Virus record (IMG/VR): IMGVR_UViG_3300025168_000033
Location: 102,533 to 166,532 of that record
Length of the DNA stretch: 64,000 nucleotides
Reading direction: 5' to 3' (one strand)
From: a virus
This document shows, piece after piece, positions 5,101 through 60,776 of the stretch. Position 1 is the first letter of the stretch; every line of letters starts with the position of its first letter. Both the position numbers and the translations under genes were made by a program. The notes beneath the pieces were generated by a model. It had not been told where the DNA came from. It was given only the letters and a program-made list of their open reading frames with translations, and searched no databases.

Positions 5101-6959
5101 AATGAAGGATTATCTAAATAATGATTTACACTTTTTATTTTACTCCATCCAGTCTGAGTTTTTAAATATTTATCAGTTGTAAGTACAACAATATCTTCAC
5201 TATTTACTACAACATAATTTTCTTTGGAATCTGTTCCGCCAGTAAAAGTCGTTTTTGCAACAAATCCTGTAGTTTCAAGAGCTGTTGATGGTATTACAGT
5301 TGAATAACTTGCGCCTATCGCTGGTACATAATCAACACCAAAAATATTTATTGTATCTGATGAATTTAATTTATATGATTGAATTTCTATTTTATTCCAA
5401 ATGGTATTAACAAATCTTGAATAAACAATAACTTTAGTTCCTACTTCAACTGCTCTAAAAATTTCACGATCACCATCTAATTTAATTATATTATTCAGTG
5501 CCTTTCTTAAAGCAATTGCCACCTGTTCTTTAGTTCCATTTAAACTATATGTTCTTCCAGCAATAGTACCAGCAGGTAATCCTGAAGTTGCTGTAACCGT
5601 ATGTGATAATACTGAATCTTTATGCGTACCATAATCAGAAGGATTATCATAAATTTCTTTTACTCTAATTTGATCACCGCTAAAAGGATTATTTGTTATA
5701 TCAATTATTGCATAAGGGCGACCATAATCTTTTGGTCTAAAAGCATCTATAGAATCAATAGGCTTGGAGAATCCTGTAAATGATTCCCAATTTACAGTTT
5801 TATCATCTATTCTTAATTGAGTGTTATCATCCCATAGACCACCGTTCTTTAAAGAATATAATTTTCCTGTTTTATCTTTTACAAATCCAAATCGTGGAAT
5901 ATTATCAAAATATTCATCTTTTGGAATAACTCCAGACTGTTTATCCAGATAGATTTTTATTCCATTTTCATTTGTTTGTATTTGGGATTCTATATTATCA
6001 GCATATCCAACAGTATCAGATTCCGGCTTTGGTAATTGAATAACTTCATTAGTCCTATCTGCAAATAATGCAGCCCCATTTAATTTAAATTTCCCAATTT
6101 CTTCTGCATTACAGTAGAATCCAAAATATCTATTTATTTCATATTTTTTTGCATCAACATCATCAAATAGAAATTCCATATTTAAGATATTTGCACATAC
6201 TATTCCGTTAGTTTGAAAACCATTTGTAATTAAATTTTCTATTTCCATGATTGTCTTATCACGAATTAAAAGATCCTCATACATGAATGCCTTTTTCTCT
6301 GTCATTTCACCTCTATCAAATGATATTCCGTTCCATGTGGTAAATTCATTTTTTACAAAATTTATATTTATAGGAGCTTCAGGAAACAATTCATCTTTTA
6401 CATGCCTTCTAATATATCTTCCAATATTTGTATTTTCTGTAAGGTCTATAATAGCATGAATTTTACTAGATTCTATAATATTTTTATAAAAATCATTATC
6501 AATACTAGTAGCAGTTGCTGTATATCCGACAGGATCTGGATTCTTAAATACTACGAAATAATCAGGGATATTAAGCGGTTCTAACCATAACGGCGCAAAT
6601 ACTGCAAATTCTTCATTATATAATTTTGAAATTTTTGGATATGCACCGGCGGAATAAGTCATATCATATTGTTCCTTAAAATTAGATTTAACAGATAAAC
6701 TATCATCTTTAATTACGGGTGAATATGCTATAGCTTTAGGGAATTTTCCTTTATCGTAAAAGTTAAAAAGATCTTGTGAATAACTTCCACCACTTACTTT
6801 AAAACCTTTGAATCTTGCATCCGATAATTCTTCAGCTTCATCAAATGATTCCAGAAAGATTTTATCTTTTGAATCTACTACAACTTTAATATTGGTAGTA
6901 AGCTTTGAATTAGTTCTAGTCATCCCAAAGCTTACTTTTTGTAAAATACGTTTAGCCAT
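2178..6959 (-). CDS. Large virion structural protein (baseplate/tail region), 1593 aa
   Basis: Long ORF tightly packed in the operon with baseplate genes; no family motif recognised. Confidence 0.55.
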   Translation of the reverse strand: MAKRILQKVSFGMTRTNSKLTTNIKVVVDSKDKIFLESFDEAEELSDARFKGFKVSGGSYSQDLFNFYDKGKFPKAIAYSPVIKDDSLSVKSNFKEQYDMTYSAGAYPKISKLYNEEFAVFAPLWLEPLNIPDYFVVFKNPDPVGYTATATSIDNDFYKNIIESSKIHAIIDLTENTNIGRYIRRHVKDELFPEAPININFVKNEFTTWNGISFDRGEMTEKKAFMYEDLLIRDKTIMEIENLITNGFQTNGIVCANILNMEFLFDDVDAKKYEINRYFGFYCNAEEIGKFKLNGAALFADRTNEVIQLPKPESDTVGYADNIESQIQTNENGIKIYLDKQSGVIPKDEYFDNIPRFGFVKDKTGKLYSLKNGGLWDDNTQLRIDDKTVNWESFTGFSKPIDSIDAFRPKDYGRPYAIIDITNNPFSGDQIRVKEIYDNPSDYGTHKDSVLSHTVTATSGLPAGTIAGRTYSLNGTKEQVAIALRKALNNIIKLDGDREIFRAVEVGTKVIVYSRFVNTIWNKIEIQSYKLNSSDTINIFGVDYVPAIGASYSTVIPSTALETTGFVAKTTFTGGTDSKENYVVVNSEDIVVLTTDKYLKTQTGWSKIKSVNHYLDNPSFGPLGSDIIKLNDFDKYRVVQIEDADQVISINSGRKITLYDTVENGTGFLSMYPVKDFDFDFHNTDYTNDVDSNPTSLLAYQEAAAIGSTGVTAINKLIGPTSQFITSGGFIKLAGDIDELSGEMTLNNVNEYDRLNENINLNLSTQSRIIPFINKWVYDDQGKDVRENDYRFDVSEAFRYSNFSPSFNAFNQDPKFYTHEWYYLQSYPAYMTDDEKKKSYSYFDSELDLVDLYNVTVDKFLEYFTQDKAGSVEFPTKFKYSIFSGGDTANFAETFFRGIKVKISEKSNTDQEIKFNINDIITEATDKFNDYKFSAVLVFDDDSNLRYRFIKNDTFKHITFVIGIGFEDELFEPTVGASATSTPSRYFDRTILYTADHKYDKAALYATGDINDPTVYKTIEVSGTLEIYGSLTVIDPRSPRDCYGITDVLDPFFGLLKIPGLSRVDGLDKSIPNFSNDINASAGGEYGDIIITYFSGDKLTYKGIKKVYTNSIICKTIELETSGVTTDITNDIWASGSPLSLNNRVATAPIYPGGFNAHKRMMNNISFATIADKINSGDPVIEYWDVGSTGVAAKSNSYLIELLKPEQENKVTTFGSIEDFNRPTTFSTTSDSIGSTLEFLNRTYVAPITRYNGNYTPRFKDVLFYKNDVTTLKPALTNQGIAADKVDGIIDNVTFDTAAEGFAKIKNMYHNKVNENNPKGLLELTRIDGFNPVYPKINEIAINYLDFDTTLSNWSNDYFLRYDDKASFKKIKGTHSMLEKRSFYGSKIMNLPETIELESFNDIDINDSKIGGRELFLPSDLDFDIVSRIQNTGENTTVSGNTGRTNNDSTTLAFNNPPIVELWVYIEKALEKYLIGDNISSVFTTFVNPALSTGLKDTINDDVKSYIKQNILKVYSIDTIELSELRYRNNINSFELLELGLNDTDRRIYSFQNTRNFRTQNLVNSNLNFKLIYNIPEERKLTSISLKVLLRKK

Positions 6960-6961
6960 TA

Positions 6962-9900
6962 CTATTTAGATATGTTTGGTTGACTGCTTAATGTAGTAGT
7001 CAAAGAATCATTCAAATCATTTATAGTATTTTGGAAAGATTTTACTGGTGTATCAGTTACATCTAAATTATTCGATTTATACTTAGCAGTAACAGTGACA
7101 TCAAAAGAAAACCGTTCATCTAATCCATAAAAGACATCGATTCCAAGTGTTTTATTATATATCAATTGATCCAGTTTCGCATTAAGTTTACCACCAACTA
7201 ACCCAAGTTCATCAGTACCATCACCAAAGAAATCAGTCATTCTATATTGAAATACTAGTGGAATACTTAAGCTTTTAGTATTTCCAAAGCTTATTTTCTT
7301 TGTTGATTTTGAACTGCTACCAGCAACACGACCAAATTCATGATCTTGCATCTTAGGAAAGAAGTAAGCACCACAGCTACGACCACCTAATAAATATTGA
7401 TCATTGCTATCAAATCCAGATTTAACACCTCGATTTAATGTGGTATCATAAAATAATGCTGCCTGTTTATTACCATTTGTTTCGGCATTATCTAATCGAG
7501 ATAATATAGTATTTCTGAATTTTATAGGGAATGCTGCTTGCATCAAAAGTGTAGAATATCCAGTAGCAAGGCCAGAATCATATCCTATCTCTTTTGCATC
7601 TATAGCAAAAAACGGATGTAATTTATGAACACCTAAAAGTATATCATAATTTAATATACCAGTTGTAGAATGTTCACTAAGTGCTTCATCTATAGTAGCT
7701 AATGTTGTAGAAGTACCAACCAATGGAGAAATCCAAAAGTTCGAACTACTTCTATCAAATGGCGTAGTTCCAACAGGATAATCAAATTTATCTTCTAAAT
7801 CATCTACGCTTGAAGCTGGTAATGTAGTAAAATTACCATTGGCGTCATTCGCTTTAGGCACACCTGTATCATCAATATCACTATATAGCGACGAAGTTCC
7901 GTCTATATTTGAATATCTAAAATTTATGAATTGTCCTAATGATTGAGAAGACTGAAATGGTAATTCAGACCTAACTGTAGCAAATGGATTAGGTGCTCCA
8001 GTAGTATTAGTAAGTTTCTCAGAAATATTTAATTTATCAATAAGCATAGGAACAACATCATATCTATCCTCAACATTATATGCCGAGTCATTACCGTTAT
8101 ATTTGTAATTTCCTTGTAGTGGATCAATAGTATTCCAAGATGCAATAGGTTTTCTATTAACAGGACCGAAGATTCTAGAATAAAGTTCCATTTCTGAAGC
8201 TCTTTCATTTTCAATAGTTAAGAAATATGTCTTGGTAATAATTACGCCTTTACTTATGCTTAATGCGGCTACTTCATCTTTATAGTTAGGCGCATTAATA
8301 TATAGTTTTCCATTATTTTCTGCACGATATTCATTACCACTTTCATCGATTATTCTAATATTAAGCTGGCCTTTAGTTCTTTCAATTAAATCTCTAACTA
8401 CTTGCAATTCGTCCTGAATTGACTTGATTTTTTCAAACATTGAAATAGGTGTTTGCTGTTCATCAACAAAACCAGAAGCTAATTCCAATCCGCTATGAGC
8501 AAAATACCGTCCGTTAGATTCAGTACTTTCTGATACGTGCCTATAAACACCTTTGGTTTCTAGATCCTCTTGTAATTCAATTCGTACACTTTCTTTAGTA
8601 GCTTCTTCTGTAATATCATCAACACTTATTTGTGATTCTAATTCATCAGGGAAATCTACACGAATAATTTCAGTATATGCAGATTTTGTAGGATTTGCAG
8701 GATATCCTGCTTCAGAAACAGATTTAATTCTAAATTCTATTCCTTCACCTCCTTTAATAGCAAGGTCTAATTGATTAATATTTACCGAATCTGAATTTTC
8801 ATTTTCTTCTACAACCCAACTTACCAATCCGGTATTAGGATCTGTAACTCTTTTTCTAACTGGAGTTTTAATTTCATTCCAAGTAGAAAATGAACCACGT
8901 CTTGTAGAGCCATCAGCCTCAGTAAATTCAATTTGATCAGCTGAATTAGCACCACCATCTTTTGTTACATATCTATATTGAATTTCAAATTGTACTACTT
9001 CCTGTGGTGTAGTTTGATTTGAAAATTTAGCATCAGGCAATGGCCAGAATCCACGTAATCTATATTTTGGTGTTGTACCCGTAATATTAGATTCAATTGT
9101 TTTTGTATTTATATCTCTTACTGAAGATGCATACAATTTTGAACGTGAACTTCTTTGACCTATAAGAGCATTTAATTCATTTCTATCCGCATCTCTTTCA
9201 ACTTTAGATTTATATTTTTTATTTCCTAGCTGAGATTGCTTTTTATTAATTGCAATATCAAATTGTGAAATTTCATTTTTAAGTTTTACCTTTTCAGAAT
9301 GTAATTTCTTGATTTCATCAATTATTGGCGTATCTGTAATGTGTCTATTAATTTGTGTTACTTTAAAATCTGTAGCTGTAATTAATGGTGAACTAGGTAT
9401 TTCTGCTAAAATAGAAGGCACTGTTCCTTCTTTAGCCATTGAAAAAAGAAATGCACCAAAATCTACAACATCATCTTTATAATACTGATCTAGTGTTCTT
9501 GTAGTATTTCCATCATCAATAGTTAAATCATTTGAAAAATATCCAACACCAGGCGACCAGTTAGTTGCTTTAATTTCTGAATCTGGATCGATTGGCTTTA
9601 TAAACATTACTGTTCTTTCATTAAAACCTACATTAACTTCTACAAGACTTGCAGCATTATTATCACCAAAGAAAATAAGATTATCATTTCCAATAGATAT
9701 TTTTTCAAATCCTTCAAGTAATTCAACAGAAACTGTAGAAGTTCCTTCGTCTATTGAAGTAATTTTATATCGTGTATTTCTTGATTCAGAATTAATTACA
9801 ATAGAATCATTGATTTTCAATTGTTGTGTATTAATATATCTTGAATCTCTATCTGAATATGTTAATTTATCTAGCTTAAATTTTAAATCACGTTTAGTAA

Positions 9901-10594
9901 TTTCCTCACCATTTTCCGTAACTGTTATAGGATTATCTAGAATTCTAATTACACTAAAAGTACCGTAAAATTTAAGGTCTCTTGGCGGAAGATTAATTAC
10001 ATCTTGATCTAAAAAGAATAATATTCCTTCCTGAAGTAATGAACTTAAAAATGTATCGTAATCCAGGTTTGATTTTCCTTGAAAATTCTTTTCAAAAAAA
10101 TCTAATTTTTTATCTGTATCTAATGTTAAAATATATCTTGCGGTTTCTACTCTTTCAGTATTTGATTTAATTTGAACACCAAAATCGAATGAAACAAAAA
10201 GTAAAGGATTTAAAAATGATTCAAAAAACCAATTTGCTCTTGATCCAAAAGATGTCGGCGTAGAAATAGTTTTAATATCATTAGCTTCCTTTTTTAATGA
10301 ATCCTGTAGAACTTTTCTAAAAGATCCGTCAGCTAATTGTAATACTGAATTTGAACTACCTAACCCTGAAAGAGACTCAACATTTTGATCAAGTCTTTCA
10401 ATTTGTGATTGTAATTTTCCAAATGATGGAATTACAACTTTTTTAATTACATTATTTTCATCAAGTATATCAATTTCTACAGTATCAGATTTAGATGAAA
10501 CTACATCAGATAACTTGTTAACTATTTCTAACCCGTTTTTCTGAACTTTAATAAGATCAGAAAGTAAAGTAGATAATGAATTTTTAGTAGGCAT
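6962..10594 (-). CDS. Large virion structural protein with coiled coils and an FN3-like segment, 1210 aa
   Basis: Heptad segments; VVQFEIQYRY...IEFRIKSVSEAG resembles FN3 strands; structural context. Confidence 0.5.
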   Translation of the reverse strand: MPTKNSLSTLLSDLIKVQKNGLEIVNKLSDVVSSKSDTVEIDILDENNVIKKVVIPSFGKLQSQIERLDQNVESLSGLGSSNSVLQLADGSFRKVLQDSLKKEANDIKTISTPTSFGSRANWFFESFLNPLLFVSFDFGVQIKSNTERVETARYILTLDTDKKLDFFEKNFQGKSNLDYDTFLSSLLQEGILFFLDQDVINLPPRDLKFYGTFSVIRILDNPITVTENGEEITKRDLKFKLDKLTYSDRDSRYINTQQLKINDSIVINSESRNTRYKITSIDEGTSTVSVELLEGFEKISIGNDNLIFFGDNNAASLVEVNVGFNERTVMFIKPIDPDSEIKATNWSPGVGYFSNDLTIDDGNTTRTLDQYYKDDVVDFGAFLFSMAKEGTVPSILAEIPSSPLITATDFKVTQINRHITDTPIIDEIKKLHSEKVKLKNEISQFDIAINKKQSQLGNKKYKSKVERDADRNELNALIGQRSSRSKLYASSVRDINTKTIESNITGTTPKYRLRGFWPLPDAKFSNQTTPQEVVQFEIQYRYVTKDGGANSADQIEFTEADGSTRRGSFSTWNEIKTPVRKRVTDPNTGLVSWVVEENENSDSVNINQLDLAIKGGEGIEFRIKSVSEAGYPANPTKSAYTEIIRVDFPDELESQISVDDITEEATKESVRIELQEDLETKGVYRHVSESTESNGRYFAHSGLELASGFVDEQQTPISMFEKIKSIQDELQVVRDLIERTKGQLNIRIIDESGNEYRAENNGKLYINAPNYKDEVAALSISKGVIITKTYFLTIENERASEMELYSRIFGPVNRKPIASWNTIDPLQGNYKYNGNDSAYNVEDRYDVVPMLIDKLNISEKLTNTTGAPNPFATVRSELPFQSSQSLGQFINFRYSNIDGTSSLYSDIDDTGVPKANDANGNFTTLPASSVDDLEDKFDYPVGTTPFDRSSSNFWISPLVGTSTTLATIDEALSEHSTTGILNYDILLGVHKLHPFFAIDAKEIGYDSGLATGYSTLLMQAAFPIKFRNTILSRLDNAETNGNKQAALFYDTTLNRGVKSGFDSNDQYLLGGRSCGAYFFPKMQDHEFGRVAGSSSKSTKKISFGNTKSLSIPLVFQYRMTDFFGDGTDELGLVGGKLNAKLDQLIYNKTLGIDVFYGLDERFSFDVTVTAKYKSNNLDVTDTPVKSFQNTINDLNDSLTTTLSSQPNISK

Positions 10595-10611
10595 GTAAGG
10601 TTGTTTTTATT

Positions 10612-12633
10612 TTATTTTATTACATCAATATGAAATAAATATTTAATATCGTTTGCGCAAATTACATCAAAAACTGGTTTAGTTGAGATGATATTTATAT
10701 TATCTATCACACCAATTGTCTTGCCGTATTTACCTAGATTAAATTTATTTGCAGCATCCGTAAATAATACAATTCGCTTTCCATTTAAATTTATATCATT
10801 TTCAAAAGATATTCTTAAAGTTTGACCTTGAGACCAGCTAGTACTTAAGTCAGAAATATTAATTATTAGATCTGTAGTTAACGTTCCTGTAGCACTTGTA
10901 TTTTTAAAATAATTAGAAAACTTACCAAGTGTTATAATATTGTTTCTTTCAGCATAATTACTGTCGTTGATATCAAAAACACCATTATCAAGTCCGTAAC
11001 TTAAAAATCCTGTAGATGTTGAAATTTCAGGAAATGAAGAATACGTTTGATTTTTATTAATAATTTTTGCTTTATTTGGAACCGATCTATCGATTGAAAT
11101 ACCATCACCAAAATCAAGTACATTAGAATCAATTGTTAATGTTAAAGGAAGTTGACCGCCAATAATTTGATTTATTTTATCTGAATTATTTCCAATTAAA
11201 TCTAGTATTGAAGTATTATCTTCTAGCGCAATACTGGCATTATTAATTTTACTTTCTAATGCAGCAATTTCACTTGTTAAGGTTTTTATATTGTCTTGAG
11301 TATAAATTAATTTTTCTAGATTATCTAATCTAGACATTAAACTAATAGTATCTAGCTTTTGAGTTAGAAACATATCAGTTGTTTCCTGTAATCTTGTCGA
11401 TGCATCAACAAAAATATCCATTGAGAATGTATTGTAATCATTGATAACAGTAGTAATTCCTACATTATCCGTTGATGTATCAAATTTAACATTCAATTTT
11501 AATCCATATGAATTACCATTTAATTTAGTAACTGGATTAGGTTTAAATTTAGCAAAGCTTTTTAATGCACCAATACCTCCAGCAGAATTCTTATAATCGT
11601 CAAGAACCAATATCCCGTAAACATTGGTTGCACTTTTAGATGGATTTGATGCACTATATACATCATAATATAAAAGAACTGCATTGAATTCAAAATCACT
11701 TGCAGCATCGGAAGAATTTAATTCTGAAATAGAATTTAAATTTGGATTAGATGCAATGGGGGTATAATTCTGTGGATCAAAATCTAATACAACACCAGCC
11801 ATATCAGATTTAAGTACTGGTTTACTATTTGCTGTTACTCCTGTATTTGTAACTAATCCAAATGTTGTACCAGTAGAATAACTATTGTCTCCATCATCAT
11901 CATAATATGCGGTAAGTGATAATCCAGCAGGATGAGTTCCACTTCTATCGTTTATATCTTCCTGTGATGTATTAATAAATTTTATATTTGCCTTATAATT
12001 ATCGTCGGCAAATTCCTTGAATAGTACTAATGGTGTATTACCATGACCTGTTGGAATATTTATATATAGTTCTGTATATGTATGTCCTCCTCTAGAAACA
12101 GTATTTATAATATCTAAATCACCGATATATTTGACAACACTATCATAGCGTTGAGTTCCTATATTGGTTTGTGTTTCTTCTTTAAATCGATTATTAACTG
12201 TAGCTTCTGTAGGAAATGCAGAAGTTTGAAATCTCATAGCACCTAATTCAATAAGCCACTTCCAAAAAATTCTTTCAGATGCTGTGGCAAATTCACTATC
12301 ATCATATTCAATACCTGTACTGTTCTTGCTATTTAAAACAAGATCTTCAATATTAAGTGCATAGTTCTGTAAAGATTTAGCAAAATTTACATTATGATCT
12401 ATAGATAATTCAGAAATAGCACCTGAAGCTGCCATACCAGCGGCTTCCCAAACAACATTATTTTGTTTATTTGTAGGAGTTTCTACATCTGGAATATCCA
12501 GACATACAAATTTAGAAAACACAAATCTTGCATCATCATCAGTAAAAGTTTTAGAAATATCCGATGCCGCAGAGCTAAACGTATAGAACGTTCCACCTTG
12601 AACTTGCAACGGCTTTATGAGTGGAGTAGCCAT
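10612..12633 (-). CDS. Virion structural protein with coiled coil, 673 aa
   Basis: ORF track and operon context. Confidence 0.5.
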   Translation of the reverse strand: MATPLIKPLQVQGGTFYTFSSAASDISKTFTDDDARFVFSKFVCLDIPDVETPTNKQNNVVWEAAGMAASGAISELSIDHNVNFAKSLQNYALNIEDLVLNSKNSTGIEYDDSEFATASERIFWKWLIELGAMRFQTSAFPTEATVNNRFKEETQTNIGTQRYDSVVKYIGDLDIINTVSRGGHTYTELYINIPTGHGNTPLVLFKEFADDNYKANIKFINTSQEDINDRSGTHPAGLSLTAYYDDDGDNSYSTGTTFGLVTNTGVTANSKPVLKSDMAGVVLDFDPQNYTPIASNPNLNSISELNSSDAASDFEFNAVLLYYDVYSASNPSKSATNVYGILVLDDYKNSAGGIGALKSFAKFKPNPVTKLNGNSYGLKLNVKFDTSTDNVGITTVINDYNTFSMDIFVDASTRLQETTDMFLTQKLDTISLMSRLDNLEKLIYTQDNIKTLTSEIAALESKINNASIALEDNTSILDLIGNNSDKINQIIGGQLPLTLTIDSNVLDFGDGISIDRSVPNKAKIINKNQTYSSFPEISTSTGFLSYGLDNGVFDINDSNYAERNNIITLGKFSNYFKNTSATGTLTTDLIINISDLSTSWSQGQTLRISFENDINLNGKRIVLFTDAANKFNLGKYGKTIGVIDNINIISTKPVFDVICANDIKYLFHIDVIK

Positions 12634-57529: not shown

Positions 57530-57748
57530 TTACCATTGCTTACGACGATCGAGGCGATCGAGTTCTTTTGCAGTTTCTTCGGATACTATTTGAATAGTAT
57601 TGCCAGTCTTACCGCTAATAACATGAGAACAGGCTACTCTTTTGGTTTGCGAGCAGCTTACGCAGCTATTATAGCCGTAGCTTAATCTTACGGGATGAAT
57701 TGAATTGCCGCATTTACAGTAGCGAGCTTCGGTTTTTTCGATTTGCAT
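57530..57748 (-). CDS. Small zinc-finger protein
   Basis: CKCG..IHPVRL..GY..CVSC, loosely DksA/TraR-finger-like. Confidence 0.6.
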   Translation of the reverse strand: MQIEKTEARYCKCGNSIHPVRLSYGYNSCVSCSQTKRVACSHVISGKTGNTIQIVSEETAKELDRLDRRKQW

Positions 57749-57751
57749 GGC

Positions 57752-58132
57752 TTATGATTTTTTAAATGGATTGTTAAATGTCGAAGTTCTAAAAAAGATG
57801 TGATCGTTATATTTCGTATATTCATTATTCGCAGCATCGGGTTCTTTCAGGGGTTCTTTCAGGGGCTCTTTTAAATCGAGGCGTTTATCGACCCAGTCGG
57901 AAAGCTCTTCCGAGTTTAAAGGTTCTAGAGGTGGCTGGCTATTAAGTCCTTGATTCTCTGAAAAGAATGCCGCAATTTCGCGAGTAAAGTCGACTACCTC
58001 TTCGCTAGCCAGCCTAAGTGTAAATATTTGCGGAGAATTCTCATTTACAAATGTAATGACCATTTTGCCGTCTACAGCCGTAAAGGTTATAGTAACTTCG
58101 TCGTCAGTAATTAATCGTTTTTCTATTTTCAT
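57752..58132 (-). CDS. Hypothetical protein with LKEP x3 repeat
   Basis: 126 aa ORF. Confidence 0.55.
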   Translation of the reverse strand: MKIEKRLITDDEVTITFTAVDGKMVITFVNENSPQIFTLRLASEEVVDFTREIAAFFSENQGLNSQPPLEPLNSEELSDWVDKRLDLKEPLKEPLKEPDAANNEYTKYNDHIFFRTSTFNNPFKKS

Positions 58133-58396
58133 TGTTTAAAAGTTGTTAGGTTAAAAAGGGTCAGGAAAGAGTAAAAATTTTTTCCTGAAATTTTTTTATT
58201 TTGGCAATTATAGCTTTTACCCTGGCTATTTGAAAATGCATTTTACTCGAAAGGCCTCGAAAATCGTAATTTTTTCAGGGAACCTATAGGCCGCTAGCCA
58301 TATTTGACTTTTCGCACGCGTTAACGAGGCGGTCCGTATCAGGGGTGGCTTTTATGTCTATGCGCATGTCTTAGCATGTGTGATCGTGTGTACATA

Positions 58397-58465
58397 TAAA
58401 GAGAACCAGCTAGCCACACACAGCATCATTGCCAGTTCTCATACACACATTACTTAATTTCTTAT
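58397..58465 (-). ncRNA. Candidate small RNA 1 (AUGUGUGU + hairpin with GUGUGU loop + U-tract)
   Basis: Directly behind class II promoter 58470..58499; stem GAGAACTGGC/GCTGGTTCTC; covaries with the copy at 60044..60100. Confidence 0.7.
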
Positions 58466-58469
58466 AGTT

Positions 58470-58499
58470 ATTATATTCGAAATGTGAGCGAATGTTTCA
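58470..58499 (-). promoter_or_regulatory. Class II promoter (drives small RNA 1)
   Basis: TGAAAC ATTCGCTCACATTTC GAATATAAT. Confidence 0.75.
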
Positions 58500-58880
58500 C
58501 TTTTCAAATTCGATATTACCGACAAAGTCCGAGTACATACAACACCAACGTCCCATGAATTCGCCTTTCGGCTTTATGAGCTTGTCGGTTTTCATATCGT
58601 ACCACTTAACTTTTCCTGATTCCATTAGATTACGAGTTAAGCGATGTTCTGCCTTTTCACGTTTTTCGCTATCGAAATATTCATTGAGGCAGTCCTCTAT
58701 AATTTCTTGTTGTATGTCTTCTCTAATAGATGATTCGAGCCATGCCATGTCTTTACGACTTAGTTCTGATATAGCTAAAGGAACCGAACCTTGATGAGTG
58801 TAACCTTTCCATTTGAATATGAAATAAATTGCATCTTCTGGCTTAATTCGATTCGAGTAATTTAGTGATTTATGTGTCAT
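58497..58880 (-). CDS. Hypothetical early protein
   Basis: 127 aa ORF behind a class I promoter. Confidence 0.6.
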   Translation of the reverse strand: MTHKSLNYSNRIKPEDAIYFIFKWKGYTHQGSVPLAISELSRKDMAWLESSIREDIQQEIIEDCLNEYFDSEKREKAEHRLTRNLMESGKVKWYDMKTDKLIKPKGEFMGRWCCMYSDFVGNIEFEK

Positions 58881-58885
58881 AGTCT

Positions 58886-58954
58886 GTTATTAATTATTTA
58901 TAGTTAAATATAAACAAAAAAATCGACAGTAAAAAATCCTGTAGCACTTATTTT
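58886..58954 (-). promoter_or_regulatory. Class I promoter repeat, copy 3
   Basis: Same motif, upstream of ATG 58880. Confidence 0.8.
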
Positions 58955-59082
58955 AAAGGACTTCCAAAGACTATTAAAAAAAGAAATAGATCCAGGAATG
59001 CTGTTACAATTCCTACTACTACTCTATCTTCGAGATCGTATGATTTCGATACTAGAATTCTATTTACTATAAATGTTATCAT
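58948..59082 (-). CDS. Small membrane protein (44 aa)
   Basis: Hand-translated MITFIVNRILVSKSYDLEDRVVVGIVTAFLDLFLFLIVFGSPLK; leader AAACTCACACC-ATG. Confidence 0.5.
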   Translation of the reverse strand: MITFIVNRILVSKSYDLEDRVVVGIVTAFLDLFLFLIVFGSPLK

Positions 59083-59094
59083 GGTGTGAGTTTA

Positions 59095-59700
59095 AAAAAA
59101 TAGGACCTAGCACTACTCGGTTCCTGATGTTAATGATCTGGTTTAGTCCCAGCTAGCACACGGATAGAAAAATCCTTCATTAACTTTGCCTTATCGATTT
59201 GATCTGTTCGATACCAGATTAAGATATAGTTGTTCTACTCTCCTATCCACCTGCAGCGCAAGCAGGATACAATATTTAAGTGTTACGTCGTCGATGCTGG
59301 CACATCCACTAGGCAACCCCTTTCGGGATACATAAAACATTTCTGCCTTATGATTAGGCACTTCCAACTAATACCATAAGTGTTTGATGATTAGAGAATC
59401 ATCTTGTCCAGTTCTGTTTTTAGTTTGAACCTAGCATTTTACGTCTTATTAGGATAATCACTCAAATTCCTAACTTTATAAACAACCACATATAGCTAGC
59501 AGGCTATACTCTTTATTTATAATACTGATGGTTTTAGATTCCTGCAAGAACTGTGTTCCATCCATCCTCGTGTTCAACTGCTCCCCTTACAAGAAAGGTA
59601 CTGATCGAACGATGTTTTGCATATTTCACATTATAGTGCGACATCTATAATTTATCCTCCCTGCAACTCGGGAGTAAGATTTTCAAGATTTTAATGAACG
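59095..59700 (-). ncRNA. Large structured RNA, ROOL-like
   Basis: ~600 nt with no ORF in the track, own promoter, terminal U-tract and more than ten visible helices; segments resemble ROOL consensus as recalled. Confidence 0.7.
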
Positions 59701-59708
59701 TTATAGTT

Positions 59709-59738
59709 ATTATATTCAACTTCGGGTCGAATGTTTCA
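59709..59738 (-). promoter_or_regulatory. Class II promoter (drives ROOL-like RNA)
   Basis: TGAAAC ATTCGACCCGAAGTT GAATATAAT. Confidence 0.75.
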
Positions 59739-59743
59739 TTTTG

Positions 59744-59817
59744 TCGGGTAGGCAGGATTCGAACTTACGATCTCCTCGTCCCAAACGAGGCGCGTTACCT
59801 GGCTACGCTACTACCCG
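59744..59817 (-). tRNA. tRNA-Pro (UGG)
   Basis: CGGGTAG/CTACCCG acceptor, CCTCG-TTTGGGA-CGAGG anticodon arm, TTCGAAT T-loop; T-stem has one A-C mismatch; CCA not encoded. Confidence 0.9.
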
Positions 59818-59831
59818 TATTAGTATTTTAA

Positions 59832-60019
59832 AACTCTCCAAGTCCCTTCAAGTAGGAATATCGGTTTAACAACTTCCCGTAGGTTAGGGAATACAGGAAT
59901 TTAACCTATACAATATCTAATTTCAAAGCTAACACTCTTGATAGTGTTGGTGATAGTTGGCGTTTCTTATTTCTAAGCGCTCACACTCATCACTTGCTTA
60001 TTCATTAGCTTGGAGAGTT
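59832..60019 (-). ncRNA. 188-nt structured RNA closed by an 11-bp terminal stem (6S-like or unknown)
   Basis: AACTCTCCAAG/CTTGGAGAGTT ends; internal CTTA-GAAA-TAAG, AACACT/AGTGTT and TTCCC/GGGAA hairpins. Confidence 0.6.
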
Positions 60020-60043
60020 CATTATGTTTTCGTTCGATGTTTT

Positions 60044-60100
60044 AAAAAGGATCGGCTAGGACACACTCCATGATTGCCGATCCTGTTAACACACATCTCA
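60044..60100 (-). ncRNA. Candidate small RNA 2 (paralogue of small RNA 1)
   Basis: ATGTGTGT, stem AGGATCGGC/GCCGATCCT, inner GGA-GTGTG-TCC, then TTTT. Confidence 0.7.
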
Positions 60101-60121
60101 TATTTTAAAGAACTATTGTCT

Positions 60122-60198
60122 TGGTGGTCTAAATGAGAATCGAACTCATTATCTTCAAGGCTATTCGCCAAGTGCTCTACCAATTGAGCTACAGACCC
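60122..60198 (-). tRNA. tRNA-like element with aberrant anticodon arm (identity undetermined)
   Basis: TAGCTCAATTGGTAGAGC D-arm, ATGAG-TTCGATT-CTCAT T-arm, GGTCTG/TAGACC acceptor and ACCA end; no canonical anticodon stem. Confidence 0.65.
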
Positions 60199-60219
60199 AT
60201 ATTGCTGTAGAATGGAGAA

Positions 60220-60453
60220 TTAAAAACCTAATCCTAAATCTATAGAATATGCTTTATTATAATCTCTTGTAACTTCTTTTCCGCTTTTATCAAATTCTAG
60301 TTTATCAATTACTGTTTTATTGTCAAGATCCATAAACAACATTGTAGTACCGTTATCGTGTTTTACAAGTTTAAGATCTTCTCCTGCTTTTTCGAATGAT
60401 TTAGTGTACTGTTCTAATTGTGTTAAATTCTTCATTTTGTTTGTTTTTTTCAT
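60220..60453 (-). CDS. Hypothetical early protein
   Basis: 77 aa ORF. Confidence 0.55.
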   Translation of the reverse strand: MKKTNKMKNLTQLEQYTKSFEKAGEDLKLVKHDNGTTMLFMDLDNKTVIDKLEFDKSGKEVTRDYNKAYSIDLGLGF

Positions 60454-60458
60454 GAGCT

Positions 60459-60776
60459 TTACTTAGCCATTTTTTTCATTTTCTTTTTAAAATCAGCCAT
60501 TTCTGATTTTGACCAGGACGAAGATCCGTTCATTGGATTATTAGGATTGTAAGTCGAGATCCGTACCTCTTCTTTTTGTTCTACCTTATGTTTCGTTCCA
60601 AAGAATCCGTAGATCGATTCGTTATAGGTTGATTTGTTCTTTGATCTTCGTGCAGTATACATTGCGTTATCAACAGCTCGATTTGCTTTGTCAGCGTTAG
60701 AACCTTTTGAGTTTTTGCATCTCATTGTACCTGTTTCGAAATTTGTTTCGTTTGATGATAGGAATGTGTCTTTCAT
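60459..60776 (-). CDS. Basic hypothetical early protein
   Basis: 105 aa ORF behind a class I promoter. Confidence 0.6.
   Translation of the reverse strand: MKDTFLSSNETNFETGTMRCKNSKGSNADKANRAVDNAMYTARRSKNKSTYNESIYGFFGTKHKVEQKEEVRISTYNPNNPMNGSSSWSKSEMADFKKKMKKMAK

Follow-up and report, generated by a model that had tools for sequence, protein, structure and literature searches.

What kind of gene occupies the roughly 600 nucleotides (nt) at positions 59095-59705, minus strand, of a marine phage sequence, and does it belong to either of the large phage RNA families ROOL and GOLLD, two of the few kinds of natural RNA that are known to assemble into cages free of protein? The sequence analyzed here (the window) comprises the last 64 kilobases (kb) of a 166.5-kb IMG/VR virus record, IMGVR_UViG_3300025168_000033, which CheckV estimates to be 59% complete. 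The original prediction placed a ROOL-like structured RNA with its own promoter at this locus. Our analyses indicate that the element, referred to as RNA1, is a real non-coding RNA gene, independently transcribed and probably abundantly expressed, and that it forms part of an accessory cassette carried by a jumbo-type phage from the sea. By its genomic context and expression signals it is of the GOLLD/ROOL kind, and it is a member of neither family.

Extent and expression of RNA1

RNA1 lies in a 1339-nt gap free of open reading frames (ORFs; 58881-60219), which also contains a transfer RNA gene, tRNA-Pro(TGG), and a weak tRNA-like "Ile(AAT)". The G+C fraction (GC) of the gap is 0.368 and that of RNA1 is 0.38, compared to 0.307 for the genome. 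No ORF of 85 amino acids (aa) or more was found on the minus strand of 59095-59705 under translation table 11 or under codes with TAG=Q, TGA=W or TAA=Q; since the region stays closed under all three recodings, an ORF hidden by an altered genetic code was ruled out. A 58-aa frame within RNA1 matched only its own spurious gene call, and the other spurious frames gave no matches.

The promoter of RNA1 belongs to a TGAAAC/TATAAT class that occurs genome-wide in 13 copies on the gene strand versus one on the other strand, where 0.4 would be expected by chance. The spacing is exactly 18 nt in 11 copies, and nearly all copies are found 7-40 nt (a few 119-156 nt) upstream of ORFs starting with ATG. 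Only two, those of RNA1 and of a second ORF-free stretch termed RNA2 (promoter at 58499-58470), are without an ORF for more than 330 nt downstream. The -10 box ends at 59709, the predicted start of RNA1 is near 59702, and the distance from promoter to the terminal U7 tract is ~610 nt. The hairpin preceding U7 is weak and bulged (-7.3 kcal/mol, z -0.95) and was not called by a consensus terminator scan; judged by its sequence, it is a candidate weak intrinsic terminator.

Part of the RNA1 stretch is present in 20 public sequencing runs from 19 studies, and 17 of the 20 runs are marine metatranscriptome (RNA) libraries. Contigs of three RNA runs (X2, X3 and X5, from three studies) and of one DNA run were compared with the window over positions 57700-60500. 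Run X2 gave a single whole contig of 499 nt (59128-59626) with 0 differences from the window, and run X3 a single whole contig of 502 nt (59136-59637). Both are wholly inside RNA1, their ends lie 8-11 nt apart and have no loose sequence, and these coincident stops are a weak hint that they mark RNA ends. Contigs of X5, variant strain included, tile 59110-59705; one of them (59442-59705) comes within ~3 nt of the predicted start, and the contig 3′ ends (59110-59136) fall 10-40 nt short of the U7 tract. The contigs of the DNA run (59100-59250 and 59451-59695) extend further. Expression of RNA1 is thus strongly suggested rather than proven, because contigs show neither strand nor level and RNA libraries may hold DNA. 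Taken together, these results bear out the prediction that a large phage carries, near its tRNAs, a gene for a non-coding RNA of ~600 nt that has a promoter of its own and ends in a U-tract, with RNA-library contigs that match its boundaries.

Relationship to ROOL and GOLLD

Searches were performed using cmscan against Rfam 15, in which the gathering scores are 99.1 bits for ROOL (RF03087) and 150 bits for GOLLD (RF02032). At gathering score, two tRNAs were the only matches in the window. ROOL gave no match, either at gathering score or at E<=10, on a 1.6-kb segment or on RNA1 alone, and none on the whole 166.5-kb record. Hence the assignment to ROOL, for which the original prediction had named the Rfam model as a check, did not hold even at E<=10, and the likeness to conserved ROOL segments put forward in that prediction was not reproduced by any model search. 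GOLLD did not match RNA1 at E<=10 either, and its best score on the whole record was 4.7 bits, elsewhere. No Rfam family matched the RNA1 strand at E<=10, in the 1.6-kb segment or in RNA1 alone; the only match inside RNA1 (17 bits, E 4.6) was to a Staphylococcus small RNA family on the opposite strand. Group I and group II introns, ribozymes, transfer-messenger RNA (tmRNA), 6S RNA, RNase P, signal recognition particle (SRP) RNA and Y RNA were rejected as identities, as none had an Rfam match on RNA1.

At the level of primary sequence, no DNA homolog of RNA1 was found by blastn against INPHARED phages, no exact 21-mer match was present in IMG/VR, JGI metagenomes or GTDB genomes, and neither nhmmer --max nor sensitive blastn found a homolog in 60+ fetched loci (L numbers below). 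Since true GOLLDs are themselves not BLAST-alignable to one another, the covariance-model negative is the relevant test for GOLLD. The model does detect GOLLD in comparable phage contigs: seven others, all carrying the leader described below, scored 163-288 bits and served as positive controls.

The boxA-type leader and first hairpin

RNA1 begins with a 24-nt leader whose core, GTTCATTAAAA, matches 10 of the 11 positions of the boxA consensus GYTCTTTAANA (PMC5725501); the single mismatch is T5A. The leader core in the form GTTCTTTAAAA matches 11/11, as do the copies in L003 and L019-L021, and this exact word has been shown to function as boxA in Legionella, with a ~10-fold rise in the precursor RNA of a long non-coding array (PMC7862264). 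The variant found in RNA1 is common to at least 10 other RNA loci. Based on these matches, we infer that the leader core represents a boxA. No described counterpart was found for the extra conserved ATTGAAAAT of the leader, and no paper in the literature collection searched links GOLLD with boxA.

The first ~27 nt are the only part of RNA1 with relatives. In L003, which is a 66% relative, 24 nt at 92% identity to the leader occur upstream of a tRNA-like gene. A pattern scan of IMG/VR with AACGTTCNTTAAAATNTTGAAAAT returned three contigs, and a relaxed pattern returned 46 stretches, mostly in contigs with a GC of 0.29-0.35. In two of the three contigs a bona fide GOLLD 3′ domain lies ~440-460 nt downstream of the motif, which places the motif at the expected start of the variable GOLLD 5′ region. 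The third contig is a 372-kb phage in which GOLLD follows a copy with three mismatches and more copies precede tRNA-like genes. With both scans taken together, the leader is followed by GOLLD in seven contigs, and other copies precede tRNAs or a recurring tRNA-like/YrlA-like gene. In L027/L053, L030/L031 and L037/L043, the leader precedes ~1.2-kb ORF-free RNAs that have no match to GOLLD or any other Rfam family at E<=1, and these are good candidates for further unclassified giant phage RNA. They are situated beside tRNA arrays (L027 ~1000-2234, L053, L030/L031 from 5372 onward, L037/L043), start with GTTCATTAAAA and the hairpin GGGGUGCUUAUGCUCC, and are mutually alignable.

The first 50 nt of RNA1 after the leader have a minimum free energy (MFE) of -12.7 kcal/mol (z -2.55). 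A hairpin is found 2-7 nt after the leader in 11 large-RNA loci (RNA1 and 10 others), with stems that differ in sequence, and GGAUAAA follows it in RNA1 and in the L020/L027 group. Beyond ~65 nt, RNA1 showed no resemblance to the leader-bearing loci compared.

The shared 5′ end raises the question of whether RNA1 is a highly divergent or truncated GOLLD (or ROOL) with a homologous 5′ region and a body that has diverged too far or a 3′ domain that has been lost. The leader of RNA1 is the same at 22/24 nt as that of the GOLLDs in L020 and L021, the first ~65 nt share a layout of leader, hairpin with an 8-nt loop and GGAUAAA, and one 26-nt match (85%, E 0.011) connects RNA1 to the 5′ region of the L020 GOLLD. 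Moreover, the 5′ half of GOLLD is known to be variable, and BLAST fails to align even true GOLLDs. We nevertheless regard such an origin as distinctly unlikely, given that RNA1 alone has no GOLLD or ROOL match at E<=10 when seven other leader-bearing loci reach 163-288 bits, that RNA1 is ~600 nt long versus >800 nt, and that the same 5′ module heads other bodies, including the L027 type with no GOLLD at E<=1. As it precedes RNAs with other bodies, the 5′ module looks exchangeable and not diagnostic.

Several further putative RNA genes were observed in the fetched loci. L003 contains two tRNA-like genes with long internal insertions (5238-5330 and 5615-5770) that were not called by ARAGORN, in which the acceptor and T arms are recognizable; the first is preceded by a boxA-type leader. 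The same locus has a 1.85-kb ORF-free gap (9719-11573), which matches no Rfam family and has a GC of 0.40-0.45 in its first 500 nt. Directly after the leader, a tRNA-like gene, GUGGCAAU...GUUACUUCG, recurs in L019 (3643-3758, 4035-4100), L025, L026, L042, L048, L055 and L063, and one copy of it scored 44.9 bits against YrlA (Y RNA-like), below the gathering score of 69. Phage contigs also gave, at L019 11344-11427, L051 5261-5348, L040 1417-1789 and L019 2608-2680, small SRP RNA matches above gathering score (42.3 and 47.2 bits), a tmRNA match of 83.8 bits and a suppressor tRNA whose anticodon is TTA.

The accessory cassette and ORF44

Relatives of the phage were sought through the proteins that flank RNA1 and were found only as ENA/Tara/Logan contigs, by way of a protein collection; none were found in IMG/VR or JGI. 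A 127-aa protein adjoining the cassette has homologs at 90%, 71% and 66% identity. The closest relative, L014/L016, has ~95% nucleotide identity in the flanks and possesses both tRNAs. In the alignment, the 3′ end of its tRNA-Pro directly abuts the canonical promoter of the 127-aa gene, so that ~58953-59740 of the window represents an insertion or deletion, and the cassette is accessory because it is missing from a relative with ~95% identical flanks. It starts directly at the 3′ end of tRNA-Pro(TGG), with RNA1 itself ~40 nt further on. An independent JGI assembly (L018), reached via the spurious RNA1 frame, is 99.93% identical over 7.5 kb and carries the same cassette, which is therefore not an assembly artifact. 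The 42 nt at the RNA1 promoter (59742-59701) are 81% identical to the RNA2 promoter region (58503-58462), and this common stretch ends exactly at the start of the leader, which suggests that a native promoter was fused to an imported RNA module.

The cassette also includes ORF44, encoding a predicted 44-aa protein. Its leader, AAACTCACACC-ATG, contains three CAC/ACA steps in 14 nt, a level reached by 1.1% of all ATGs and 6% of genes of at least 120 aa. A Kyte-Doolittle value of 2.8 over residues 21-39 predicts a membrane-type segment. Homolog searches with ORF44 gave no matches, and for this reason it may not be a gene.

The position of ORF44 makes it conceivable that RNA1 is mainly a long cis-acting leader controlling read-through into, or translation of, this ORF in an attenuator-like or toxin-control-like fashion; the promoter, RNA1, a leaky terminator and a gene for a small membrane protein would then make up a single unit. 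Both are part of the same indel, the 11 nt between U7 and ORF44 contain no promoter for it, its ACAC-rich leader is typical of the phage and its C-terminus is transmembrane-like, and a terminator hairpin of -7.3 kcal/mol is weak. In our view, a primarily cis-acting role is unlikely, since 600 nt far exceeds known attenuators and riboswitches and the leader is common to stand-alone RNAs (GOLLD, tRNA-like genes). In addition, no RNA-library contig was found on ORF44, those of the three studies ending at 59110-59136, although absent cover proves nothing; and ORF44, being without homologs, may not be a gene at all.

Structure of RNA1

The complementary segments listed in the original prediction are present on the minus strand, including CTCCC/GGGAG, GATGG/CCATC, TTATAAATAA/TTGTTTATAA around TATAGC/GCTATA, TTAGGA/TCCTAA, GATGATT/AATCATC, TCCC-GAAA-GGGG, GTTAATGA/TCATTAAC and the final T7 (59094-59100), and most of them occur in the MFE fold. 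A single-sequence MFE is unreliable at 600 nt. The MFE of the minus strand had a z-score of -2.5 with 20 shuffles and -1.9 with 100 shuffles (4 of the 100 folded as well), and the plus strand was no better than its shuffles (z -0.35 and -0.7).

Strains in runs X5, X3 and X9 differ from the window at ~21 positions. In RNA1 numbering (59706 minus the window position), one X9 contig holds both halves of a compensatory change from C68-G79 to U-A in a CAC/GUG hairpin, and one X5 contig holds a compensatory change from GUUC/GAAC to GUCU/AGAC at 276-279/292-295. The change A201>G retains its pair as G-U, and two others lengthen CCUGC/GCAGG to a seven-pair helix. Single nucleotide changes were uninformative when compared with the MFE fold, and so was a four-strain RNAalifold consensus. 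The proposed pseudoknot ATCTGGT/ACCAGAT is broken by the natural variant G492>A. A GAAA tetraloop with an 11-nt receptor (UAUGG/CCUAAU) was rejected upon inspection, because the register allows no continuing helix. The natural variants thus suggest selection on some local hairpins of RNA1 but do not demonstrate an elaborate global fold.

Alternatively, RNA1 could be an insert that is selfish or in decay and serves no purpose for the phage, for instance what is left of a mobile element or a disrupted gene. It would then be transcribed only by virtue of having landed behind a strong promoter, and it would accumulate because GC-rich hairpins slow its decay. RNA1 is an orphan of one phage lineage that is missing from a relative with ~95% identical flanks, it has no homologs in IMG/VR, JGI, GTDB genomes or INPHARED, and its fold statistics are only modest. 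We find this origin distinctly improbable in view of the way in which a native promoter is precisely joined to a leader conserved among RNA genes, the presence of a candidate terminator, and the near constancy of the sequence in strains from many studies, in which the changes include two compensatory pairs. There are also no signs of homology to proteins, nor any signature of a transposase, integrase or intron.

The phage and the neighborhood of RNA1

The minus strand of the window carries all of its large ORFs. Protein comparisons placed the phage closest, among cultured phages, to the jumbo myoviruses Sphingomonas phage PAU, Tenacibaculum phages PTm1 and PTm5 and Chryseobacterium phage MA9V, which are distant at 30-34% identity. 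The source environment of the sequencing runs and related contigs, Tara included, is marine. Gene starts of the phage lack Shine-Dalgarno sequences. A Bacteroidota host, as was originally proposed, is plausible and unproven: Tenacibaculum and Chryseobacterium phages are among the nearest cultured relatives and gene starts are without Shine-Dalgarno sequences, but Sphingomonas phage PAU is among these relatives as well.

Feature coordinates are given in Table 1. The tRNA-like Ile(AAT) scored only 32.8 bits, has an irregular anticodon arm and is conserved in L014. The spacer between the two tRNAs is conserved in L003 (E 8e-10) and L006 (E 1e-12), both of which are without these tRNAs, and in L014 it includes the T-arm-like GGTTCGATTCC. 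The spacer may represent a tRNA that has degenerated or a small RNA of another type. RNA2 has no Rfam match at gathering score and is 95% conserved over 256 nt in L014-L017, where a 62-aa ORF is inserted after it. Two GUGUGU-flanked hairpins, of which one follows the tRNA-like Ile gene and the other opens RNA2, have stems that differ in sequence and both pair (AGGAUCGGC/GCCGAUCCU versus GAGAACUGGC/GCUGGUUCUC), with a weak nhmmer link between them (E 0.1-0.25). A highly conserved promoter-plus-leader repeat of ~70 nt with the core TAACTATAA has 15 copies on the gene strand against one on the opposite strand (58890-58955, 62080, 56130, 52085 and others in the record), and downstream of it are AAATACACACAC-ATG starts without Shine-Dalgarno sequences.

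Table 1. Positions of RNA1, its parts and adjacent features in the window.
Feature	Position	Strand	Remarks
RNA1, ~600-nt non-coding transcript	59095..59705	minus	no ORF under four codes; RNA-run contigs; no Rfam family
Promoter TGAAAC-N18-TATAAT	59709..59738 (TGAAAC 59738-59733, TATAAT 59714-59709)	minus	exact hexamers, 18-nt spacing, intergenic
24-nt 5′ leader AACGTTCATTAAAATCTTGAAAAT	59679..59702	minus	boxA-like core GTTCATTAAAA (59699-59689), +8 to +18 of predicted transcript
First hairpin CUCCC-GAGUUGCA-GGGAG, then GGAUAAA	59657..59674	minus	5 nt after leader
Terminal hairpin + A + U7	59094..59125 (hairpin 59125-59102; U7 59100-59094)	minus	fold; contig ends 59110-59136
Accessory cassette (promoter, RNA1, candidate terminator, ORF44), ~788 nt	58953..59740	minus	absent from relatives L014/L016
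ORF44, 44 aa	58948..59082	minus	11 nt after U7 tract; C-terminal hydrophobic segment; part of cassette
tRNA-Pro(TGG)	59743..59817	minus	Rfam tRNA 61.4 bits; ARAGORN; conserved in relatives L014/L016
tRNA-like Ile(AAT)	60122-60197	minus	
Inter-tRNA spacer	59830-60019	minus	
RNA2	58133-58499	minus	second ORF-free stretch, GC 0.37; own TGAAAC-N18-TATAAT promoter (58499-58470)
GUGUGU-flanked hairpins	~60044-60100; ~58400-58455	minus	

Discussion

The explanation that best accounts for the data, with a probability of roughly 0.65, is that RNA1 is transcribed from a gene of its own as an abundant non-coding RNA of ~600 nt, which belongs to an uncatalogued family, is headed by a boxA and would form a stable particle that acts in trans. 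By analogy with rRNA (ribosomal RNA) operons and long CRISPR arrays, the boxA on the nascent RNA would recruit Nus factors of the host, and the Nus-loaded RNA polymerase could then cross 600 nt of untranslated RNA without Rho-dependent termination. RNA1 would subsequently fold and accumulate as a stable particle. The most speculative steps are that this particle may act in trans during infection, like GOLLD and ROOL, which are near tRNA islands and abundant yet dispensable, and that it may bind or sequester a host component of the translation or RNA-turnover apparatus rather than regulate a neighboring gene.

A number of observations weigh against this explanation. Its functional part is argued solely by analogy with RNAs whose own function is unexplained, and the location of ORF44 directly downstream permits a role in cis. 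Contigs cannot give the strand, true ends or level of a transcript, and DNA may be present in RNA libraries. The boxA of RNA1 departs from consensus at position 5, and the leader could be a promoter element, given that L019 and L025 have TTTACA 17 nt before GAAAAT; for RNA1, an RNA signal is favored because the leader is inside an X5 RNA-run contig and has the TGAAAC promoter just upstream. With regard to structure, the z-score of the fold is modest and no hairpin reaches significance by itself, proposed pairs are lost through U265>C and U336>C, and in the four-strain consensus fold 6 of the 13 paired variable columns break a pair. As no divergent homolog was found, a conserved elaborate fold is unproven.

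RNA1 thus combines a genomic and expression context like that of GOLLD and ROOL with a wide distribution in ocean RNA data and membership in no catalogued family. If it is structured, the GOLLD/ROOL kind would be widened beyond two families. The boxA-type leader points to a means by which phages may keep transcription of long untranslated RNAs from terminating, and it provides a practical handle for RNAs that covariance-model searches miss. Strains with and without the cassette whose flanks are ~95% identical constitute a natural comparison, by which function could become testable in metagenomic time series or in culture. A bolder and more doubtful proposal, which we offer tentatively, is that large phage RNAs which fold, and possibly assemble, by themselves make up a new class with RNA1 as the first member to be seen, and that the leader GTTCWTTAAAATNTTGAAAA exposes a whole unclassified set (RNA1, the ~1.2-kb RNAs of the L027 type and others). 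The RNAs of this set would be transcribed in a termination-resistant, rRNA-like manner, and their 5′ modules and bodies would be exchangeable.

Among known systems, the boxA leaders of rRNA operons and long CRISPR arrays, which act in Nus-factor antitermination, likewise place GTTC(T/A)TTAAAA right at the start of a transcript that is long and untranslated, whereas that of RNA1 heads a phage RNA gene and has one mismatch (T5A). The tRNA cluster of phage T4 encodes species 1 and 2, stable non-tRNA RNAs of ~120-140 nt that are cut from a tRNA precursor. They too are stable non-tRNA RNAs of the tRNA region, in a T4-related myovirus, while RNA1 is ~600 nt long and has its own promoter. ROOL ranges over Firmicutes, Tenericutes, Fusobacteria and rumen samples; the source of RNA1, in contrast, is a marine phage, and RNA1 matches the ROOL covariance model at no threshold. 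The two are similar in size, the average length of ROOL being 581 nt (PMC5737381), and both occur in phages or prophages near tRNAs; ROOL was abundant yet non-essential in the one strain studied (10.1101/2024.12.08.627333). The ~1.2-kb RNAs of the L027 type are twice as long as RNA1, mutually alignable and unrelated to it in the sequence of their bodies, but have the same GTTCATTAAAA leader, hairpin and GGAUAAA, are ORF-free with tRNA arrays adjacent, and belong to no Rfam family. GOLLD (RF02032) differs from RNA1 in its conserved 3′ domain, which is undetectable in RNA1, in its length of >800 nt versus ~600 nt, and in its sequence past ~65 nt, where no similarity is seen. Like RNA1, it is phage-encoded and tRNA-adjacent, can be abundant, and is a stand-alone transcription unit ending in a U-tract. 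Bona fide GOLLDs in IMG/VR contigs are furthermore preceded by the same 24-nt boxA-type leader (22/24 nt), followed by a hairpin and GGAUAAA, a feature that is not in the published GOLLD definition and that RNA1 shares.
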